This document shows, piece after piece, positions 12,019 through 34,489 of a stretch of 64,000 nt of DNA (the stretch's first letter is position 1; each line of letters starts with the position of its first letter). The position numbers and the translations under genes were made by a program. The DNA lies in assembly GCA_030390025.1 (NCBI GenBank), contig CM059432.1, positions 61,754,001-61,818,000 on the forward strand. Reading direction: 5' to 3'. The notes beneath the pieces were generated by a model. It saw only the letters and a list, made by a program, of their open reading frames with translations. It did no database searches and was not told where the DNA came from. The DNA comes from Squalus acanthias. Its lineage: Eukaryota.

Positions 12019-12374
12019 ATTCAACCGCGGAAATACATACAGAGCCAGCGTACTATAGGTCAGACGGTACTATTCTCGCATTGCCCCAGTTTTGGTCAGT
12101 TTTATAAATGATCAGAAAATCTGGTCCATTGAATCAGTTGTGTGTATGTGCAAGTGCATGAAATTTCTGTCCATTCTCTGCCTGTCCACTAGATGGGGTC
12201 TTTCACCATTGAAAAATTTATGATGTTCATATTTTCTGCCTCCCTTTCCATGGAGTGAGGTGGACATTATAAAATTGGATAGCAAAATACTGCGGATGCT
12301 GGAAATACGAAATAACAACAGAAAACGCTGGAAAAACTCAGCAGGCCAGGCAGCATCCGTGGAGAGAGAAACAG

Positions 12375-12411
12375 AGTTAACGTTTCAGGTCGAAGACCTT
12401 TCGTCAGAACT
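12375..12411 (-). ncRNA. Minimal hammerhead ribozyme motif in PLE terminus
   Basis: Reverse complement reads AGTT-CTGACGA-A-AGGTC-TTC-GACCT-GAAA-CGTT-AACT. Confidence 0.75.
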
Positions 12412-14124
12412 GGAAAAAAGCAGGAAATTAAACAGATTTTAAAGTAAGTTTAGGGCTGGGAAAAGGGGGAGGGGATGAAAGAACAAAAGGGAAGGTCAAT
12501 GGTAGGATAGAAAGCAGGAGAGATTAAGAGACATTGAGAGACATTAAGAGATATTCAAGGCAAGAGGAGGTGGAAATGGGACAGGTTGAGGAACAAAGGA
12601 TGGCTCTAGATGAAGTGTGAACTGCGCTGGCAGAATGGAGGACAGCTGCCAGCTTCTGGGAGGGAAGAAAAAAAAGGCCAAACAAAAGTGTGGATAAAAA
12701 AATAAAATAAAAAAATATATATATATATGTGATAGGGGCCGAGGTTATGATCTGAAATTGTTGAACTCTATGTTGAGTCCAGAGGGCTGTAGAGTGCCTA
12801 ATCGAAAGATGAGGTGCTGTTCCTCGAGTTTACGTTGAGCTTCCGTGGAACAATGCAAGAGGCCGAGGACAGTGAGGTCTGAGTGGGAATGGAGCGGTGA
12901 ATTAAAGTGACAGGCCACCAGGGAGCTCGGGGTCCCCCTTACGGACTGAACGGAGGTGTTCCGCAAAGCGGTCACCCAATCTGCGTTTGGTCTCCCCAAT
13001 GTAGAGGAGACCACATCGTGAGCAGCGAATACAGTGTACTAAATTGCAGGAAGTACAAGTAAATCGCTGTTTCACCTGGAAGGGGTATTTGGGGCCCTGG
13101 ACATTGGGAAGAGGGGAGGTATAAGGGCATGTGTTGCATCTCCTGCGCTTACACGGGAAGGTGGCGGGTGAAGGGGAAGGGGTGCTGGGGGTGGTAGAGG
13201 AGTGGACTAGGGTGTCGCGGAGGGAGCGGTCCCTGCGGAATGCTGAAAGGGGAGGTGAGGGGAAGATGCGTTTGGTGGTGGGATCACGCTGGAGGTGGTG
13301 GAAATGGCGGAAGATGATCCGTTGAATGTGGAGGCTGGTGGGGTGAAAGGTGAGGACAAGGGGAACTCTATCGTGGTTCCGGGAGGGAGGGGCAGGGGTG
13401 AGGGCGGAAGTGCGGGAGATAGAGCGGACACGGTCGAGGGCCGTGTCAACCACAGTAGAGGGGAATCCTCGGTTGAGGAAAACGGAAGACATGCCGGAAG
13501 CACTGGTATGGAAGGTGTCATCGTCAGAGCAGATGCGGCAGAGATGGAGAAACTGGGAGAATGGAATAGAGTCCTTACAGGAGGTGGGGTGGGAGGACGT
13601 GTAGTCCAGGTAGCTGTGGGAGTCAGTGGGCTTGTAGTGAATGATTGTCAATAACCTATCCCCAGAGATGGAGACGGAGAAGTCGAGGAAGGGAAGAGAA
13701 GAGTCGGAGATGGACCATGTGAACATAAGAACATAAGAACATAAGAAATAGGAGCAGGAGTAGGCCAATCGGCCCCTCGAGCCTGCTCCGCCATTCAATA
13801 AGATCATGGCTGATCTGATCCTAACCGCCAATCTACTATCTATCACAGAACCATCTCCTGCATCTAACAGAATTGCACACACGAAATAGGAGCAGAATCA
13901 GGCTACACAGTCCCTGGGCCCGCTCCACTACCCACAGGGCCATGACCGGATCCGAACCTAGACTCATGTCCAAATTCCTGCCCGCTCCCCGTAACCCTTA
14001 ATGCCCTTTACTTCTAGGAAACTGTCTATTTCTGTTTTAAATTTATTTAATGATGTAGCTTCTACAGCTTTTTGTGGCAGCATATTCCATGGACCTACCA
14101 CCCTCTGAGTGAAGTAGTTCCTCC

Positions 14125-15978
14125 TCATCTCAGTTTTGAAAGAACAGCCCCTATTCTAAGACTATGTCCCCTAGTTCTAGTCTCACCCATCATCGGGAAC
14201 ATCCTCCCCGCATCCACCCGATCCAACCCCTTCACAATCTTATATGTTTCAATAAGATCGCCTCTCATTCTTCTGAACTCCAATGAGTAGAGTCCCAATC
14301 TACCCAACCTCTCCTCATATGACCACCCCCTCATCCCCGGGATTAACCGAGTGAACCTTTTTTGCACTGCCTCGAGAGCAAGGATGTCTTTCCTTAAGTA
14401 AGGACACCAAAACTGTATGCAGTATTCCAGGTGCGGTCTCACCAATACCTTGTACAACTGAAGCAATACCTCCCTATTTTTATATTCTATCCCCCTAGCA
14501 ATGAAAGCCAACATTCCATTTGCCTTCTTAATCACTTGCTGCACCTGCATACTAACCTTTTGAGTTTCGTGCACCAGGACCCCCAGATCCCTTTGCACTT
14601 CAGTACTCTCCAGTTTCTTGCCATTAAGATAATAAATTGCTCTAGGATTTTTCCTGCCAAAGTGCATCACCTCACACTTTCCAGTGTTGTATTCCATCTG
14701 CCAAATCTCTGCCCACTTACTTAGCCTGTCTATGTCCCCTTGCAGGTTTTTTATATCCTCCTCACTCACTACTTTCCCTCCCATCTTTGTATCATCTGCA
14801 AATTTTGATATGTTACACTTGGTCCCTTCCTCCAAATCGTTAATATAGATTGTAAAGAGTTGGGGACCCAGCACTGACCCCTGTGGAACACCACTAGTTA
14901 CTGATTGCCAGTCTGAGAATGAACCATTTATCCCAACTCTTTGCTTTCTGTTAGATAGCCAATCCTCTATCCATGCCAGAATATTACCCCCAATCCCGTG
15001 ATTTTTTACCTTAAGCAATAATCTTTTGTGTGGCACCTTGTCAAATGCCTTTTGGAAGTCTAAATACACTACGTCCACTGGTTCCCCTTTATCCACTCTA
15101 TATGTTACTTCCTCAAAGAACTCCAGCAAATTTGTCAAACATGACTTCCCCTTCGTAAAACCATGCTGACTTTGTCCTATTAAATTATGATTATCCAAAT
15201 GTCCTGTTACTGTTTCCTTAATAATGGACTCCAAAATTTTACCTACCACAGATGTTAGGCTAACCGGTCTATAGTTACCAGCCTTCTGTCGACTGCCCTT
15301 TTTAAATAAGGGTGTTACATTAGCAGTTTTCCAGTCTGCCGGGACCTTAGCGGAATCCAGGGAGTTTTGAAAAATTATTACCAATGCATCTACAATCCCT
15401 ACCGCCACTTCCTTCAAGACTCTAGGATGTAAGCCATCAGGTCCAGGTGATTTATCCGCCTTGAGTCCCATTATTTTACCGAGTACCACTTCCTTAGTGA
15501 TTTTGATCGTGTTTAGCTCCTCTCCCCCTATAGCCCCCTGTTTGTCCAGTGTTGGGATATTCTTAGTGTCCTCTACTGTAAAGACTGATACAAAATATTC
15601 ATTCAGTGTTTTTGCCATCTCCATATTTCCCACCATTAATTTCCCGGTCTCATCCTCTAAGGGACCAACATTTACTTTAGCCACCCTTTTTCTTTTTATA
15701 TAACTATAAAAACTCTTACTATCTGTTTTTATATTTTTTGCTAATTTACTTTCATAATCTATCTTCCCTTTCTTAATCAATCTTTTTGTTATTTTTTGCT
15801 GCCTTTTAAATTTTTCCCAATCTTCTGTCCTCCCACTAGATTTCGCTACCTTATATGCCCTTGTTTTTAGTCGAATACTATCCTTAATTTCTTTACTTAG
15901 CCACGGATGACTATCCTTTCTTTTACACCCTTTTCTTTTCAGTGGAAGTTGTAAAATAACTCCTTGAATGTACACCAC
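14125..15978 (-). pseudogene. CR1 ORF2 reverse transcriptase part (frameshifted from the endonuclease part near 15940-15978 and again near 14130)
   Basis: KSPGPDG, NYRPVSLTS, LDFQKAFDKVPH, GVPQGSVLGP, FADDTK. Confidence 0.92.
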
Positions 15979-16898
15979 TGATCATGTGTCGTCTTACCCT
16001 TTAATCTATTTTCCCAATCCACTCTACTCAATTCCGCTCGCATACCTTCATAGTCTCCTTTATTCAAGCTTAGCACGCTTGTTTGAGATCCAACCTTCTC
16101 ACCCTCTAATTGAATATGGAATTCAACCATGTTATGGTCACTCATTCCAAGGGGATCCTTTACTAGGACATTTTTAATTAATCCTGTCTCGTTACACAGG
16201 ACCAGATCTAAGGTTGCTTGCCCCCTGGTCGGTTCAGTTACATACTGCTCAAGAAACCCATCCCTAATACACTCAATGAACTCATCCTCAAGGCAGCCCT
16301 GCCCCATTTGATTTGTCCAATTAATATGATAGTTAAAATCCCCCATAATTATAGATGTTCCCTTATTACATGCCTCAACTATTTCCTGATTGATACTCCG
16401 TCCAACAGAGTTGCAACTGTTCGGAGGCCTATAGACTACGCCCACTAGTGTTTTTTTCCCCTTATTATTCCTTATCTCCACCCAAACTGTTTCATTATCA
16501 TGATTTTTTGACCCAATATCATTACTCTGTATTACAGTGATTCCTTCCTTTATTAACATAGCCACCCCACCTCCCCTTCCTTCCTGCCTGTCCTTCCTGA
16601 TCGTTAAATAACCTGGTATGTTTAATTCCCAGGCATTGTCACCCTGCAGCCATGTTTCTGTAATGGCCACAATATCATAACCATATGTAGTTATTTGTGC
16701 CATTAACTCGTCTATTTTGTTACGAATGCTACGTGCATTCAGATAGAGAACTTTCAAATATGCTTTGTGGCACTTAGTTCCTGCTTTTTCACTTTTTACC
16801 ACTTTACCTTTTACTCCACACACTCTGTCCCTTCCTGCCACGCTCTGATTTGTGATTCCCCTACTGCTACCTATGTCTATGACCCTCTCTGTTGTCAT
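15939..16898 (-). pseudogene. CR1 ORF2 AP-endonuclease part
   Basis: YLNARSIRNK, ITETW, GDFN, LDLVL, SDH motifs. Confidence 0.92.
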
Positions 16899-16936
16899 TT
16901 TTATTTTTTGCTCTCTTGAAACCTCCCCCCCACTAA

Positions 16937-17893
16937 TTAGTTTAAAGCCCTCTCCACAGCCCTAGTTATTCGATTCGCCAGGACACTAGTCCCAGCACTG
17001 GCCAAGTGAAGTCCGTCCCAACGGAACAGCTCTCTCCTGCCCCAGTACTGGTGCCAGTGTCCCAAGAAGCAAAACCCATTTTTCCCACACCAGTCTTTGA
17101 GCCACGCATTCAACTCCCTGATTTTATTTACCCTAGCCAAATTTGCTCGTGGCTCAGGTAGTAATCCAGAGATTATTACCCTCGAGGTTCTGCTTTTTAA
17201 TTTGGCCCCTAGCTGCTCAAACTCCCTCAGCAGAACCTCTTTCCTTGCCCTATCTATGTCATTGGTACCAACATGGACCACGACAACTGGATCCTCCCCC
17301 TCCCACTCCAAGTTTCTCTCCAGCCCAGAGGAGATGTCCTTAACCCTGGCACCGGGCAGGCAACACAGCCTTCGGGACTCTCGCTCTTGGCTGCAAAGAA
17401 CCCTATCTATCCCCCTAATGATACTATCCCCTACCACTACAACATTTGTTTTTACTCCCCCCACTTGAATGGCCCCCCTTACCACGGTGCTGTGGCCAGG
17501 TTGCTCATCCTCCCTGCAGTCCCCGCTCCTATCCACACAGGGAGTAAGAGCCTCGAACCTGTTGGACAAGAGCAAGGGCTGCGGCTCCTCCAACACTGCC
17601 TCCTGGATCCCTGTACTTGCCTCACTCATAGTCACACCTTCCTGTCCCTGACCACGGGCTACTTCTGAATTAATTACTCTAATTGGTGTGACTACCTCCT
17701 GAAACACGGAGTCCAGGTAACTCTCCCCCTCCCTGATGTGTCGCAGTGTTTGAAGCTCGGACTCCAGCTCATCAACACGGAGCCGGAGTTCCTCGAGCAG
17801 CCAAAACTTACTGCAAATGTGTTCACTGTGAACATCAATGGTGTCCACCAGCTCCCACATATTGCAGCAGTAACACATCACCTGCTCTCCCAT
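16937..17893 (-). CDS. CR1 ORF1p: zinc finger / coiled coil + SGNH-type esterase domain (318 aa, open)
   Basis: CxxC start, LRLRVDELESELQTL coiled coil, VVGDSIIRG, VHVGTND and DGLHL blocks typical of esterase-bearing CR1 ORF1. Confidence 0.9.
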   Translation of the reverse strand: MGEQVMCYCCNMWELVDTIDVHSEHICSKFWLLEELRLRVDELESELQTLRHIREGESYLDSVFQEVVTPIRVINSEVARGQGQEGVTMSEASTGIQEAVLEEPQPLLLSNRFEALTPCVDRSGDCREDEQPGHSTVVRGAIQVGGVKTNVVVVGDSIIRGIDRVLCSQERESRRLCCLPGARVKDISSGLERNLEWEGEDPVVVVHVGTNDIDRARKEVLLREFEQLGAKLKSRTSRVIISGLLPEPRANLARVNKIRELNAWLKDWCGKNGFCFLGHWHQYWGRRELFRWDGLHLASAGTSVLANRITRAVERALN

Positions 17894-18107
17894 TCTATGT
17901 AATTAATTAAAAATTTATTATTTACCCTTCAGTTAATTTATGCCAGCAGTCTCCGCTACATCACAGATACCCGAGAAACTATAAACTATAGAATTGAAGT
18001 TTTGTATAAAAAAAAGAGAAATACTCACCAACCAATCACTTACCTGCTTTCTGGTGACGTCACACTTCGATTATTTTTACCTCTCTCCTGCTCTCGGCTT
18101 GGTGAAA

Positions 18108-18406
18108 GCCTACCTGGTCGCTGCCGCCTTTTACCGCCGCCGCCTCGCCGCTGTTGCTCCACCCAGGTCCGCCGCCTCTGTGGGCCTACCTGGTCGCTGC
18201 CGCCTTTTACCGCCGCCGCCTCGCTGCTGTTGCTCCACCCAGGTCCGCCGCCTCTGTGGGCCTACCTGGTTGCTGCTGCCTTTTACCGCCGCCGCCTCGC
18301 CGCTGTTGCTCCACCCAGGTCCGCCGCCTCTGTGGGCCTACCTGGTTGCTGCCGCCTTTTACCGCCGCCGCCTCGCCGCTGTTGCTCCACCCAGGTCCGC
18401 CGCCTC
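18108..18406 (-). repeat. 76-bp GC-rich tandem monomers (4 copies) at the CR1 5' end
   Basis: Units start at 18108, 18184, 18260 and 18336; the last is truncated at the element boundary. Confidence 0.93.
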
Positions 18407-19208
18407 ATAGTCCGTAAGGGGGACCCCGAGCACCCAGTGGCCTGTCACTTTAATTCACCGCTCCATTCCCACTCAGACCTCACTGTCCTCGGCCTCATAG
18501 TGAATGAAATTTTCTAGTTCAGGGCGAGAGCAGGACTGGAACAAAGAGTGTTCCACATATCCCACGAAAAGGCAGGCATAGCTAGGACCCATGCGGGTTC
18601 CCATAGCAACACCTTTGATTTGGAGGAAATGAGTGGACTCAAAGGAGAAGTTGTTCAATGTGAGAACAAGTTCAGCCAGGCGGAGGAGGGTGGTGGTGGA
18701 TGGGGACTGGTTGGGCCTCTGTTCAAGGAAGAAGCGGAGCGCCCACTGGCCATCCTGGTGGGGGATGGAGGTGTAGAGGGATTGTATGTCCGTAGTGAAA
18801 AGGAGGCGGTTGGGGCCGGGAAACTGGAAACTGTTAAAGTGGCGGAGGGCGTCGGAAGAGTCGCGGATGTAGGTGGGAAGAGACTGAACAAGGGGAGAAA
18901 AAAAATAGAGTCGAGATAGGAAGAGATAAGTTCCGTGAATTTCATTCACTATGCTTCCAATTTCCACCCTTCCCTCAACTGCCCATGGTCCATCTCCGAC
19001 TCTTCCCTTCCCTTCCTCGACTTCTCCGTCTCCATCTCTGGGGATAGGTTATTGACAAACATTCACTACAAGCCCACTGACTCCCACAGCTACCTGGACT
19101 ACACTTCCTCCCACCCCGCCTCCTGTAAGGACTCTATTCCATTCTCAGTTTCTCCGTCTCCGCCGCATCTGCTCTGATGATGCCACCTTCCATACCAGTA
19201 CTTCCGAC

Positions 19209-19955
19209 ATGTCTTCCGTTTTCCTCAACCGAGGATTCCCCTCTACTGTGGTTGACACGGCCCTCGACCGTGTCCGTTCTATCTCCCGCACTTCCGCCCT
19301 CACCCCTGCCCCTCCCTCCCGGAACCACGATAGAGTTCCCCTTGTCCTCACCTTTCACCCCACCAGCCTTCACATTCAACGGATCATCTTCCGCCATTTC
19401 CACCACCTCCAGCTTGATCCCACCACCAAACACATCTTCCCCTCACCTCTCCTTTCAGCATTCCGCAGGGACCGCTCCCTCCGCCACCCCCTAGTCCACT
19501 CCTCTACCACCCCCAGCAGCCCTTCCCCTTCGCCCGCCACCTTCTCGTGCAAGCACAGGAGCTGCAACACCTGCCCTTATACCTCCCCTCTTCCCACTGT
19601 CCAGGGCCCCAAATACCCCTTCCAGGTGAAACAGCGATTTACTTGTACTTCCTGCAATTTAGTATATTGTATTCGCTGCTCACGATGTGGTCTCCTCTAC
19701 ATTGGGGAGACCAAACGCAGATTGGGTGACCGCTTTGCAGAACACCTCCGTTCAGTCCGTAAGGGGGACCCCGAGCTCCCGGTGGCCTGTCACTTTAATT
19801 CACCGCTCCATTCCCACTCAGACCTCACTGTCCTCGGCCTCTTGCATTGTTCCACGGAAGCTCAGCATAAGCTCGAGGAACAGCACCTCATCTTTCGATT
19901 AGGCACACTACAGCCCTCTGGACTCAACATAGAGTTCAACAATTTCAGATCATAA
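19209..19955 (+). pseudogene. PLE ORF C-terminal part: RT thumb/linker + GIY-YIG endonuclease
   Basis: CxxxxCxxC linker, LVYCIRCSRCGLLYIGETKR, and a QPSGLN ending typical of Penelope ORFs. Confidence 0.88.
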
Positions 19956-20271
19956 CCCCGGCCCCTATCACTTATATATATTTTTATTTTATTTTTTTAT
20001 CCACACTTTTGTTTGGCCTTTTTTTCTTCCCTCCCAGAAGCTGGCAGCTGTCCTTAATTCTGTCAGTGCAATTCACACTTCATCTAGAGCCATCCTTTGT
20101 TCCTCAACCTGTCCCATTTCCACCTCCTCTTGCCTTGAATATCTCTTAATGTCTCTTAATCTCTCCTGCTTTCTATCCTATCACTGACCTTCCCTTTTGC
20201 TCTTTCATCCCCTCCCCCTTTTCCCAGCCCTAAACTTACTTTAAAATCTATTTCATTTCCTGCTTTTTTCC

Positions 20272-20308
20272 AGTTCTGACGAAAGGTCTTCGACCTGAAA
20301 CGTTAACT
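20272..20308 (+). ncRNA. Minimal hammerhead ribozyme motif in PLE terminus
   Basis: CTGACGA (20276-20282), stem II AGGTC/GACCT, GAAA (20297-20300), palindromic ACGT stem III, stem I AGTT/AACT. Confidence 0.78.
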
Positions 20309-20689
20309 CTGTTTCTCTCTCCACGGATGCTGCCTGGCCTGCTGAGTTTTTCCAGCGTTTTCTGTTGTTATTATAAAATTGGAGTTTTTGATCTTGCTCC
20401 ATCTGCCATCGGGAAGTGAAGAGGGTTGAAAATATACAACAATGAAAGAACTGAAATAAAAATGGGAAAAGGATGAAAATAAAATATCTGTATTGATAAG
20501 AATGCTCAATAATATCCCTCTGTACATGAGAGAGTATCATTATTTGTAATAAGCTACAAAATCTGTTATAAATTAGTCTTTCTTTTTGTAGATTCATGAC
20601 ATCCAATAAGTAACACCTTAATTTGTACTAACTGTGCCAGTTAACTGGAGCTGTTGGTTCCATTATCATAAATCTGTTATTTAAAACTT

Positions 20690-33169: not shown

Positions 33170-33930
33170 GAGCTTAAGAAATAGGAGCTGGAGTAGGCCA
33201 TTTGTCCCTTCGAGCCTGCTCCGCCATTCAACAAGATCATGGCTGATCTTCTACCTCAACTCCACCTTCCCGCACTATCCCCATATCCCTTAATTCCCTT
33301 AGTTCCCAAAAATTTATCGACCTCTGTCTTGAATATATTCAACGACTGAGCATCCACAGCCCTCTGGAGTAGAGTATTCCAAAGATTCACAACCCTTTGA
33401 GTGAAGAAATTTCTCCTCATCTCAGTCCTAAATGGCCGACCCCTTATCCTGAGACTGTGACCCCTGGTTCTAGACTCCCCAGCCAGGGGAAACATCCTCC
33501 CGGCATCTACCCTGTCAAGCCTCTTAAGAATTTTATATGTTTCAATTAGATCACCTCTCATTCTTCTAGACTCCAGAGAATATAGGCCTAGTCTCCTCAA
33601 TCTATCCTCACAGTCAGTCCCCTCATCCCAGGAACCAGTCAAGTGAACCTTCATTGCACTCCCTCTAAGACAAGTATGTCTTTCCTTAGGTATGATGTGG
33701 AGATGCCGGTGTTGGACTGGGGTGGACAAATGTGAGAAGTCGCACAACACCAGGTTATAGTCCAACAGCTTTATTTGAAATCACAAGCTTTCGGAGCGCT
33801 GCTCCTTTGTCAGGTGACGAAGGAGCAGCGCTCCGAAAGCTTGTGATTTCAAATAAAGCTGTTGGACTATAACCTGGTGTTGTGCGACTTCTCACATTTT
33901 TCCTTAGGTAACGAGACCAGAACTGTATCT
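33170..33930 (-). mobile_element. CR1 3' fragment carrying a PLE hairpin insertion
   Basis: ORF 33256-33765 RGDLIETYK..FFTQRVVNLWN; tail at 33175. Confidence 0.88.
33693..33898. mobile_element. Short palindromic PLE-terminus-derived element with hammerhead-like motifs and 12-bp TSD
   Basis: 85-bp arms 33728-33812 / 33815-33899 with one mismatch; TSD TTTCCTTAGGTA at 33681-33692 and 33899-33910; (C)TGACGA-A-GGAGC-AGC-GCTCC-GAAA-GCTT core. Confidence 0.85.
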
Positions 33931-34489
33931 AATGCAAGATGAGGACTGCTGGATCCAGGAGCTAAGTGCCTTTACACTTACCTCCTGGATCCACTGTCCC
34001 TGGCTAACCCAGCCCCCATGATCAGAGAACCCTCACCAGGCCTCCGATCCCCCCCTCAAGGCCTTCCCCGCCCCCCCCACCCCCATGCTCCTCCGGCCGC
34101 TGATCGTTCCCTATCCGCTGCCCCCCCACTCCTCCGGCCCCCAATCCTCACTGGACCCACCCCCGCTCCTCCAACTTCCCCCCAGCCCCTGTGCTGTTCC
34201 CAGCTTGCAATCTTCACCCGAGCCCCTACCATGCTGCTCCTGACCGCTCCCGGCCCCCGATCTTCACCCGACTCCCTCTCCGTGCTGCTCCCAGCCCCTG
34301 ATCTTCACCCCATTCTCCCGGCTTTCCCAACCACTTCAGAGCCCCCCTGCTCCAAACCCACCTTCCCCGTTATAATTCAGCCTATTATGTCCAACTCATT
34401 TGGTCTGGCGGGGAAGGGGGTTACTGCGTGCTTGGATCCAGAAACTGGCCTCCAAGCATCTGTGTTGCCCTTGTTTGTGCTAACTTAAT

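Follow-up and report, generated by a model that had tools for sequence, protein, structure and literature searches.

A 206-bp hairpin in Squalus acanthias consists of two head-to-head termini of a Penelope-like element

Architecture and host sequence of the insert

The window, a 64,000-nucleotide stretch of Squalus acanthias contig CM059432.1 (assembly GCA_030390025.1, positions 61,754,001 to 61,818,000 of the forward strand), contains an insert of 206 bp with a mirror-image layout, located at 33693–33898 between the two copies of a target-site duplication (TSD). The insert is made up of two pseudo-LTRs (pLTRs) of a Neptune-type Penelope-like element (PLE), placed head to head. Positions within the arms are numbered with the hammerhead C3 as 0, and the features of the locus are as follows.

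33681–33692, no strand: left TSD, 12 bp of CR1 sequence (direct repeat; present singly in other CR1 copies)
33693–33727, minus strand: 35-nt PLE 'tail', found on one arm only and corresponding by alignment to the parent stretch immediately 5' of the ATG (tail concept from the available text of PMC3846280 and PMC11167929)
33728–33817, minus strand: tailed pLTR arm, extending to -4 relative to the hammerhead C3, with stems I and II intact and the core CTGACAA (G8 to A at a CpG)
33813–33817, no strand: head-to-head junction, GG centre plus a 3-nt microhomology (TGA); same centre in 463 genome copies
33815–33898, plus strand: short pLTR arm, +1 to ~+84, without C3 or the 5' half of stem I, retaining stem II, the GAAA box and a palindromic stem III
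33899–33910, no strand: right TSD (direct repeat; present singly in other CR1 copies)
33175–33927, minus strand: host CR1-type LINE 3' fragment, split by the insert (two further copies in the window are 84% and 72% identical)

Arm 33728–33812 pairs with arm 33815–33899 at 84 of 85 positions, the sole non-canonical position being a T.G at 33808/33819, and the hairpin is centred on the GG at 33813–14. RNA folding gives a z of approximately -23 on either strand, with none of 200 shuffles folding equally well. The 35-nt extension (33693–33727) is unpaired and one-sided, and the direct repeat flanking the insert is a perfect 12 bp (33681–92 and 33899–910). Two other CR1-type copies within the window contain this 12-mer once and then run on into the sequence of the right flank; the repeat is therefore a true TSD. 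A first-pass annotation had described the 85-bp hairpin with its one-sided 35-nt extension, the 12-bp TSD and the insertion into a CR1, and all of these were recovered, the host being the 3' fragment of a CR1-type LINE with two related copies in the window. Approximately 20 bp to the right of the TSD, the CR1 is cut by another repeat, which opens with a 19-bp inverted repeat around a 6-nt spacer (33950–33993). Tandem arrays are located at 647–949 and 18108–18406, with units of ~66 and ~76 bp respectively.

Exons encoding EF-hand_3, of the dystrophin/dystrobrevin family, lie on the plus strand 27 and 10 kb upstream of the window, and exon-like frames on the same strand at ~45256 and ~59269 presumably fit dystrobrevin motifs. 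Taken together, these upstream exons and downstream frames make it likely that the insert sits in an intron of a dystrobrevin gene. The insert had previously been placed inside DTNA; a dystrobrevin gene, of either the alpha or the beta type, remains the likely host. Contigs from 4 of 23 runs were placed at the locus and show the repeat family to be abundant, and no locus-spanning piece, empty site or RNA end was found among them.

Parent element and hammerhead cores

A family search with the left arm returned 849 candidates, and among the 40 that were scored the matches were nearly all identical. Long copies continue into an RT/GIY-YIG reading frame. Stop-free frames of 920–931 codons were found in 14 of 150 scored protein matches, and 12 regions with such frames were taken for study. 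In one copy, L106, a tail-less pLTR in inverted orientation is accompanied by a direct pLTR, an 891-aa ORF and a further pLTR that has the tail and is 97.6% identical to the window arm. The L106 ORF matches RVT_1 above the cut-off (E=1e-8), and the homologous L006 fragment gives a GIY-YIG match just below the cut-off (E=3.6e-4, 21.2 bits compared to 22.6) with the motifs visible in the translation. The parent has the organisation of an EN+ PLE, with a single ORF in which the RT is followed by a C-terminal GIY-YIG endonuclease, and its pLTRs occur in both direct and inverted orientation (L106, L110–L113), as is also characteristic of EN+ PLEs. The Penelope origin proposed for the terminus is supported by a parent that carries the same terminus. 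A CX4CxxC linker is located directly upstream of the GIY-YIG motif. According to the available part of PMC8557442, a CX2-5CxxC linker between RT and EN marks the Neptune/Nematis clade, and this motif, rather than an RT tree, points to a parent of Neptune/Nematis type. The tail ends at the ATG of the parent, 120 nt past the hammerhead C3. A very young subfamily (L109–L113, L115–L117) has the core CTGAGGA, a different loop II and the same TATA/initiator position, and includes palindromes up to 99.97% self-identical and several intact 921-codon frames.

The family hammerhead has a 4-bp stem I, a 5-bp stem II, an extra A and a stem III with the palindrome AGCU. All 179 arms scored have T or C at position 17, N7 and loop II differ among subfamilies, and the CUGANGA and GAAA boxes are constant. 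With these boxes, stems I and II, the palindromic stem III and the NUH triplet, the family conforms to the minimal type I hammerhead consensus, although the Rfam models give no match. The minimal PLE hammerheads described in the accessible text of PMC4209133 likewise have a short stem I, an extra nucleotide before stem II, a G10.1-C11.1 pair and a palindromic stem III. By genome pattern count, at least 11,441 tailed termini contain an intact CTGACGA core and 341 contain the CTGACAA variant, with reversed-pattern controls giving 0 in both cases. The minimal hammerhead with a palindromic stem III that had been predicted for these termini is therefore present in the family, both boxes included. 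An apparent systematic asymmetry between dead-core and live-core arms, seen in loci L001–L030 that had been selected for the variant of the window, disappeared with the genome counts and was rejected.

The insert itself does not retain C3 and G8 on either arm. Its minus-strand core is CTGACAA, with A at position 8 and stem I intact, and its plus-strand core is without C3 and without the 5' strand of stem I; alignment of the cores bears out both defects as first annotated. Both hammerheads of the insert are broken. Changes at C3 and G8 abolish cleavage in PAc, the Poseidon element of Anolis carolinensis (PMC11167929, available text). The CTGACAA core is most simply read as CpG decay following insertion, because the change falls in a CpG and other arm CpGs differ at 3–7% of pairs. 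An Rfam scan of the insert gave no hammerhead match at E≤10 and returned miRNA-hairpin models only, below their gathering scores; as these matches mirror only the hairpin shape, a miRNA identity was discarded. When the insert is folded alone, the hairpin has energies of -170 and -157 kcal/mol compared to ~-11 for the hammerhead fold, and by this modelling the long hairpin would be favoured over the ribozyme fold by >140 kcal/mol.

Hairpin stubs across the genome

The first 30 copies on contig C1, for which the sole requirement was a tail together with an intact core, were taken as a sample. Head-to-head pairs account for 23 of these, 16 of which are ≤250 bp in length. Flanking repeats of 9–16 bp (mode 12) were found for 22 of the 23 pairs, using a search that allowed offsets, and the 23 hairpins have 19 different centre geometries. 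Genome-wide, ~3,800 loci contain two cores ≤30 nt apart and correspond to short hairpins. The element is thus present in multiple copies, as anticipated; of the further expectation that copies share both TSDs and hairpin centre, the former holds and the latter does not. The exact centre of the window insert is common to 463 loci. Among the 33 of these examined, seven haplotypes are seen at four marker sites and the outer ends are variable; 20 copies have the tail on the +1 arm and 13 have it on the -4 arm. With several subfamilies and both tail polarities represented among them, the same-centre hairpins were formed repeatedly and do not represent a clonal retrozyme family.

The first-pass annotation had offered two readings of the insert: a 'minimal PLE insertion product', which agrees with the head-to-head pLTRs, tail and TSD found, and a tiny non-autonomous 'hairpin retrozyme'. 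A self-propagating retrozyme, in which the 206-bp unit would be transcribed, self-cleave and be reinserted whole by the enzyme of the parent, we consider highly improbable. It would account for the recurrence of the exact centre in 463 copies; pLTRs are the source of animal retrozymes (10.64898/2026.07.22.740005, in part) and are able to act in trans (PMC3846280, in part). However, the centre is a natural 3-nt microhomology that deletes C3 from one core, and the sampled 33 same-centre copies already point to scatter among pLTR subfamilies. Both cores are broken and sequestered in a hairpin in which the arms pair with each other, and the promoter-like TATA lies outside the unit. Non-LTR (animal) retrozymes resemble the insert in being pLTR-derived, hammerhead-bearing and non-coding (available text of 10.64898/2026.07.22.740005 and PMC7229834), but they consist of direct tandem repeats with a complete, intact ribozyme in each unit (10.64898/2026.07.22.740005), whereas the two units of the insert are inverted and neither core is functional in sequence. 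Accumulation as circular RNA is a further hallmark of non-LTR retrozymes. Nor do the copies trace to one master with shared length, centre and diagnostic bases, as would a non-autonomous element of fixed structure, and a clonal 206-bp family was ruled out by the variety of centre geometries and marker haplotypes together with the two tail polarities.

An inverted pLTR accompanied by a tail and a TSD is a published PLE pattern (PMC3846280, PMC8557442 and PMC2377424, each in its available text). Insertions of EN+ PLEs, as described for Pen2a of Adineta vaga (PMC3846280) and in overview (PMC8557442), are like the insert in their inverted pLTR, one-sided tail beside the ORF start and TSD, and have a TATA and initiator-like motif in the pLTR as observed here. 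Their optional tail at one end is 30–40 bp, compared to the 35 nt of the insert with its 12-bp TSD; across the family the tail offset has a median of 40 nt by alignment (59 pairs). The Penelope element of D. virilis has a 34–37-bp repeat and, unlike the pLTR here, a TATA-less internal promoter (PMC2377424). Pairs of minimal hammerheads on opposite strands, ~100–700 bp apart, were attributed to truncated PLEs in PMC4209133, whereas the cores of the insert are both broken and only a few bases apart. In contrast to these EN+ PLEs, the minimal ORF-free form dominates in the present family, and a defined start of the RNA is what the statistics of the junctions suggest. The locus itself is ordinary, a dead stub of a known kind of PLE insertion and one among thousands.

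The head-to-head layout recurs in copies of every size, and atypical copies were also seen. L112, L113 and L115 are palindromes of 4–7 kb with 99.5–99.97% self-identity, a one-arm tail being present in L112 and L113. L009 has a tail on both arms, with no TSD found. L070 and L081 extend 70–80 nt into the coding sequence, after which a short direct tandem copy begins near -7 to -11; L074 also extends beyond the ATG. The window also contains a second PLE family with the same layout (12266–20383, ~8.1 kb), with 1.4-kb inverted arms of 95% identity, a hammerhead-like core in each arm, a ~30-nt extension on the left arm only, other repeats nested between the arms and a 14-bp flanking repeat (12266–79 and 20370–83).

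Junctions and proposed integration

Inner ends were determined for 65 head-to-head pairs from 87 non-redundant loci, 60 of the loci having been chosen because their tailed arm covers the core. Of the 130 arms, 92 end within -12 to +7, with a mode at -7 (23 arms) and a second mode at -4 (15 arms); outer ends are bimodal, at ~+120 and ~+83. In 13 of 13 pLTRs compared, which came from 8 of the 9 loci tried and were included only if an upstream TATA was present, an initiator-like motif has its A at position -7, and TATATA is located 30–33 nt upstream (starting at -37 to -40). A non-C base precedes -7 in 4,265 arms genome-wide. A hand count of the first 100 gave 58 G, 28 T and 14 A, compared to 19 G in the first 100 of 2,530 at the control one position later (Fisher p=2e-8), with T-bearing subfamily variants entering both the test and control lists (5 of 30 loci inspected at -7 were such variants and not junctions). 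G is present in 18 of 23 junctions for which the script did not assign the base to the partner arm, some of these being ambiguous by eye. In full-length L1 insertions, an extra G is a signature of cap reverse transcription (PMC11702581, in part). Because arm ends peak at the initiator A ~30 nt below the TATA, with an excess of G before it, we infer from the genomic junctions that the stub join point likely marks the capped RNA start of the element, at -7. The G excess could derive in part from microhomology with a G-rich partner arm, and the control position is imperfect. Near position 1500, four separate copies (L166, L167, L172 and L175) have one junction in common, in which the partner arm ends in stem II and an untemplated TG precedes -7, consistent with slippage following a base derived from the cap.

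We attach very little weight to the notion that the junctions cluster through stalling of the RT at the folded hammerhead, or on ribozyme-cut templates, rather than at the RNA start. The cluster does adjoin stem I, with the second mode at -4, and junctions at the predicted cut (+29) are ~2–3 times as frequent as at a single control position (+32). Junctions made up ~22 of 30 loci inspected among 616 matches at +29 and 17 of 30 among 258 at the control, following reclassification by eye of four test loci and one control locus from script junctions to small indels; the estimated totals are ~450 and ~150 respectively. However, the main peak at -7 lies upstream of the entire fold and cut site, on the initiator A and with the G excess, and the -7 class (~3,500 by estimate) is roughly eight times the +29 class. 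Furthermore, PAc uses uncleaved RNA in vitro (PMC11167929, available text). A 4-nt microhomology accounts for 5 of the 22 junctions at +29, and these junctions would form at most a minor class, not established, and would give a weak genomic hint of self-cleavage. In a single case (L187, near position 1500), three extra A's are found exactly at the predicted hammerhead cut, with the template continuing on either side.

The two arms agree at +44 in 86 of 89 pairs, where random pairing would give 42 differing, and at +28 in 85 of 88 pairs. Both arms therefore come from one source lineage, and random pairing from the whole subfamily pool was ruled out by the agreement at +44. This agreement is also compatible with fold-back of a single cDNA, whereby a cDNA reaching the RNA 5' end would self-prime and be copied back, and the endonuclease would resolve the second end ~35 nt short; self-priming is argued in PMC3846280 and an EN-mediated tail in PMC8557442, both in the available text. 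The same route is compatible with the tailed arm reaching further 5' in 41 of 61 pairs as against 13 (4 of 65 left out, the sample being mostly selected for a long tailed arm), and the junction of the insert could be folded into a 3-bp stem enclosing a 2-nt loop. We nevertheless judge fold-back unlikely. The short arm holds bases missing from the tailed arm at 8 of 35 clean (insert-free) junctions, 7 of the 35 imply a loop of ≤1 nt (one being a natural palindrome), and the tail sits on the shorter-reaching arm in 20 of the 33 same-centre copies. In addition, a 1-nt indel in loop II is discordant between arms in 11 of 87 pairs, compared to a background arm-to-arm substitution of 61/5,853 (1.0%), although this discordance could include assembly errors. 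On account of the extra bases of the short arm, the tiny loops, the mixed tail polarity and the loop II indel, and by analogy with PAc, which extends both target strands in vitro from two adjacent internal starts and is a predicted dimer (PMC11167929, in part), dual priming would be the best reading of the junctions.

With dual priming as the preferred reading, we consider it probable that the insert, a head-to-head pLTR pair of an abundant Neptune-type PLE, derives from one dead-end integration in which both cut target strands were extended by the RT. The architecture, parent ORF, copy numbers, variable centres, 12-bp TSD and broken cores are observed, and the integration steps, which are inferred, would proceed as follows. 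The GIY-YIG domain of the element would make a staggered cut, ~12 nt apart, and each 3'-OH would prime cDNA inside the RNA, at ~+120 (beside the ATG) and ~+83, leading to the one-sided tail. With the transcript of the pLTR TATA/initiator starting at -7, the cDNAs would run off after ~90–130 nt, often gaining a base opposite the cap. The cDNA ends would then join via 1–4 nt of microhomology prior to fill-in; in the insert this would involve 3 nt, with the arms trimmed to -4 and +1. A later CpG transition would have damaged the remaining core. Full-length copies and long palindromes may arise by the same reaction, primed at the downstream pLTR.

In PAc, two internal RT starts flank the tail, like the bimodal outer ends seen here, both target strands are cut and extended, and the pLTR hammerhead is dispensable for insertion, to which the present family can be likened. 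Unlike PAc, the parent has the Neptune/Nematis CX4CxxC linker, and its ATG is found where the tail ends, 120 nt beyond the core, and not within the ribozyme (PMC11167929, in the part available). L1 twin priming also involves priming at both target ends, an inverted product, a microhomology join and an extra G at complete 5' ends. In L1, however, the second cDNA is primed internally on the same RNA, yielding segments that do not overlap, whereas here both primings would copy one short segment (PMC11702581, in part). A literature search, thin on subscription papers and supplements, found no account of twin priming in PLEs or of PLE hairpins anchored at a TSS.

In a wider proposal, to which we assign about an even chance of being correct, the hairpins would constitute a fossil record of unresolved PLE integration. 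A dimeric RT-endonuclease would copy two separate templates of capped, pLTR-initiated RNA, and the resulting cap-copying 'strong-stop' cDNAs would be joined head-to-head, such that the junctions map the TSS to one base; the template in vivo would be mostly uncleaved, with a minor class at the hammerhead cut. How PLEs complete their integration, and why the copies come out inverted and tailed on one side only, are questions on which the family bears. To the published PLE pattern it makes a modest, testable mechanistic addition, in the form of the cap-like G and of junctions that suggest two templates. The junctions predict that transcripts start, capped, at -7, that the RT begins at ~+83 and ~+120 and that two templates are used, in a family that retains intact ORFs. 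The suggestion that the insert acts as a source of intronic dsRNA or small RNA, an idea from sequence alone, is plausible and would hold equally for thousands of copies. If transcribed within introns, these thousands of near-perfect hairpins, ~85 bp or longer, could supply much dsRNA.
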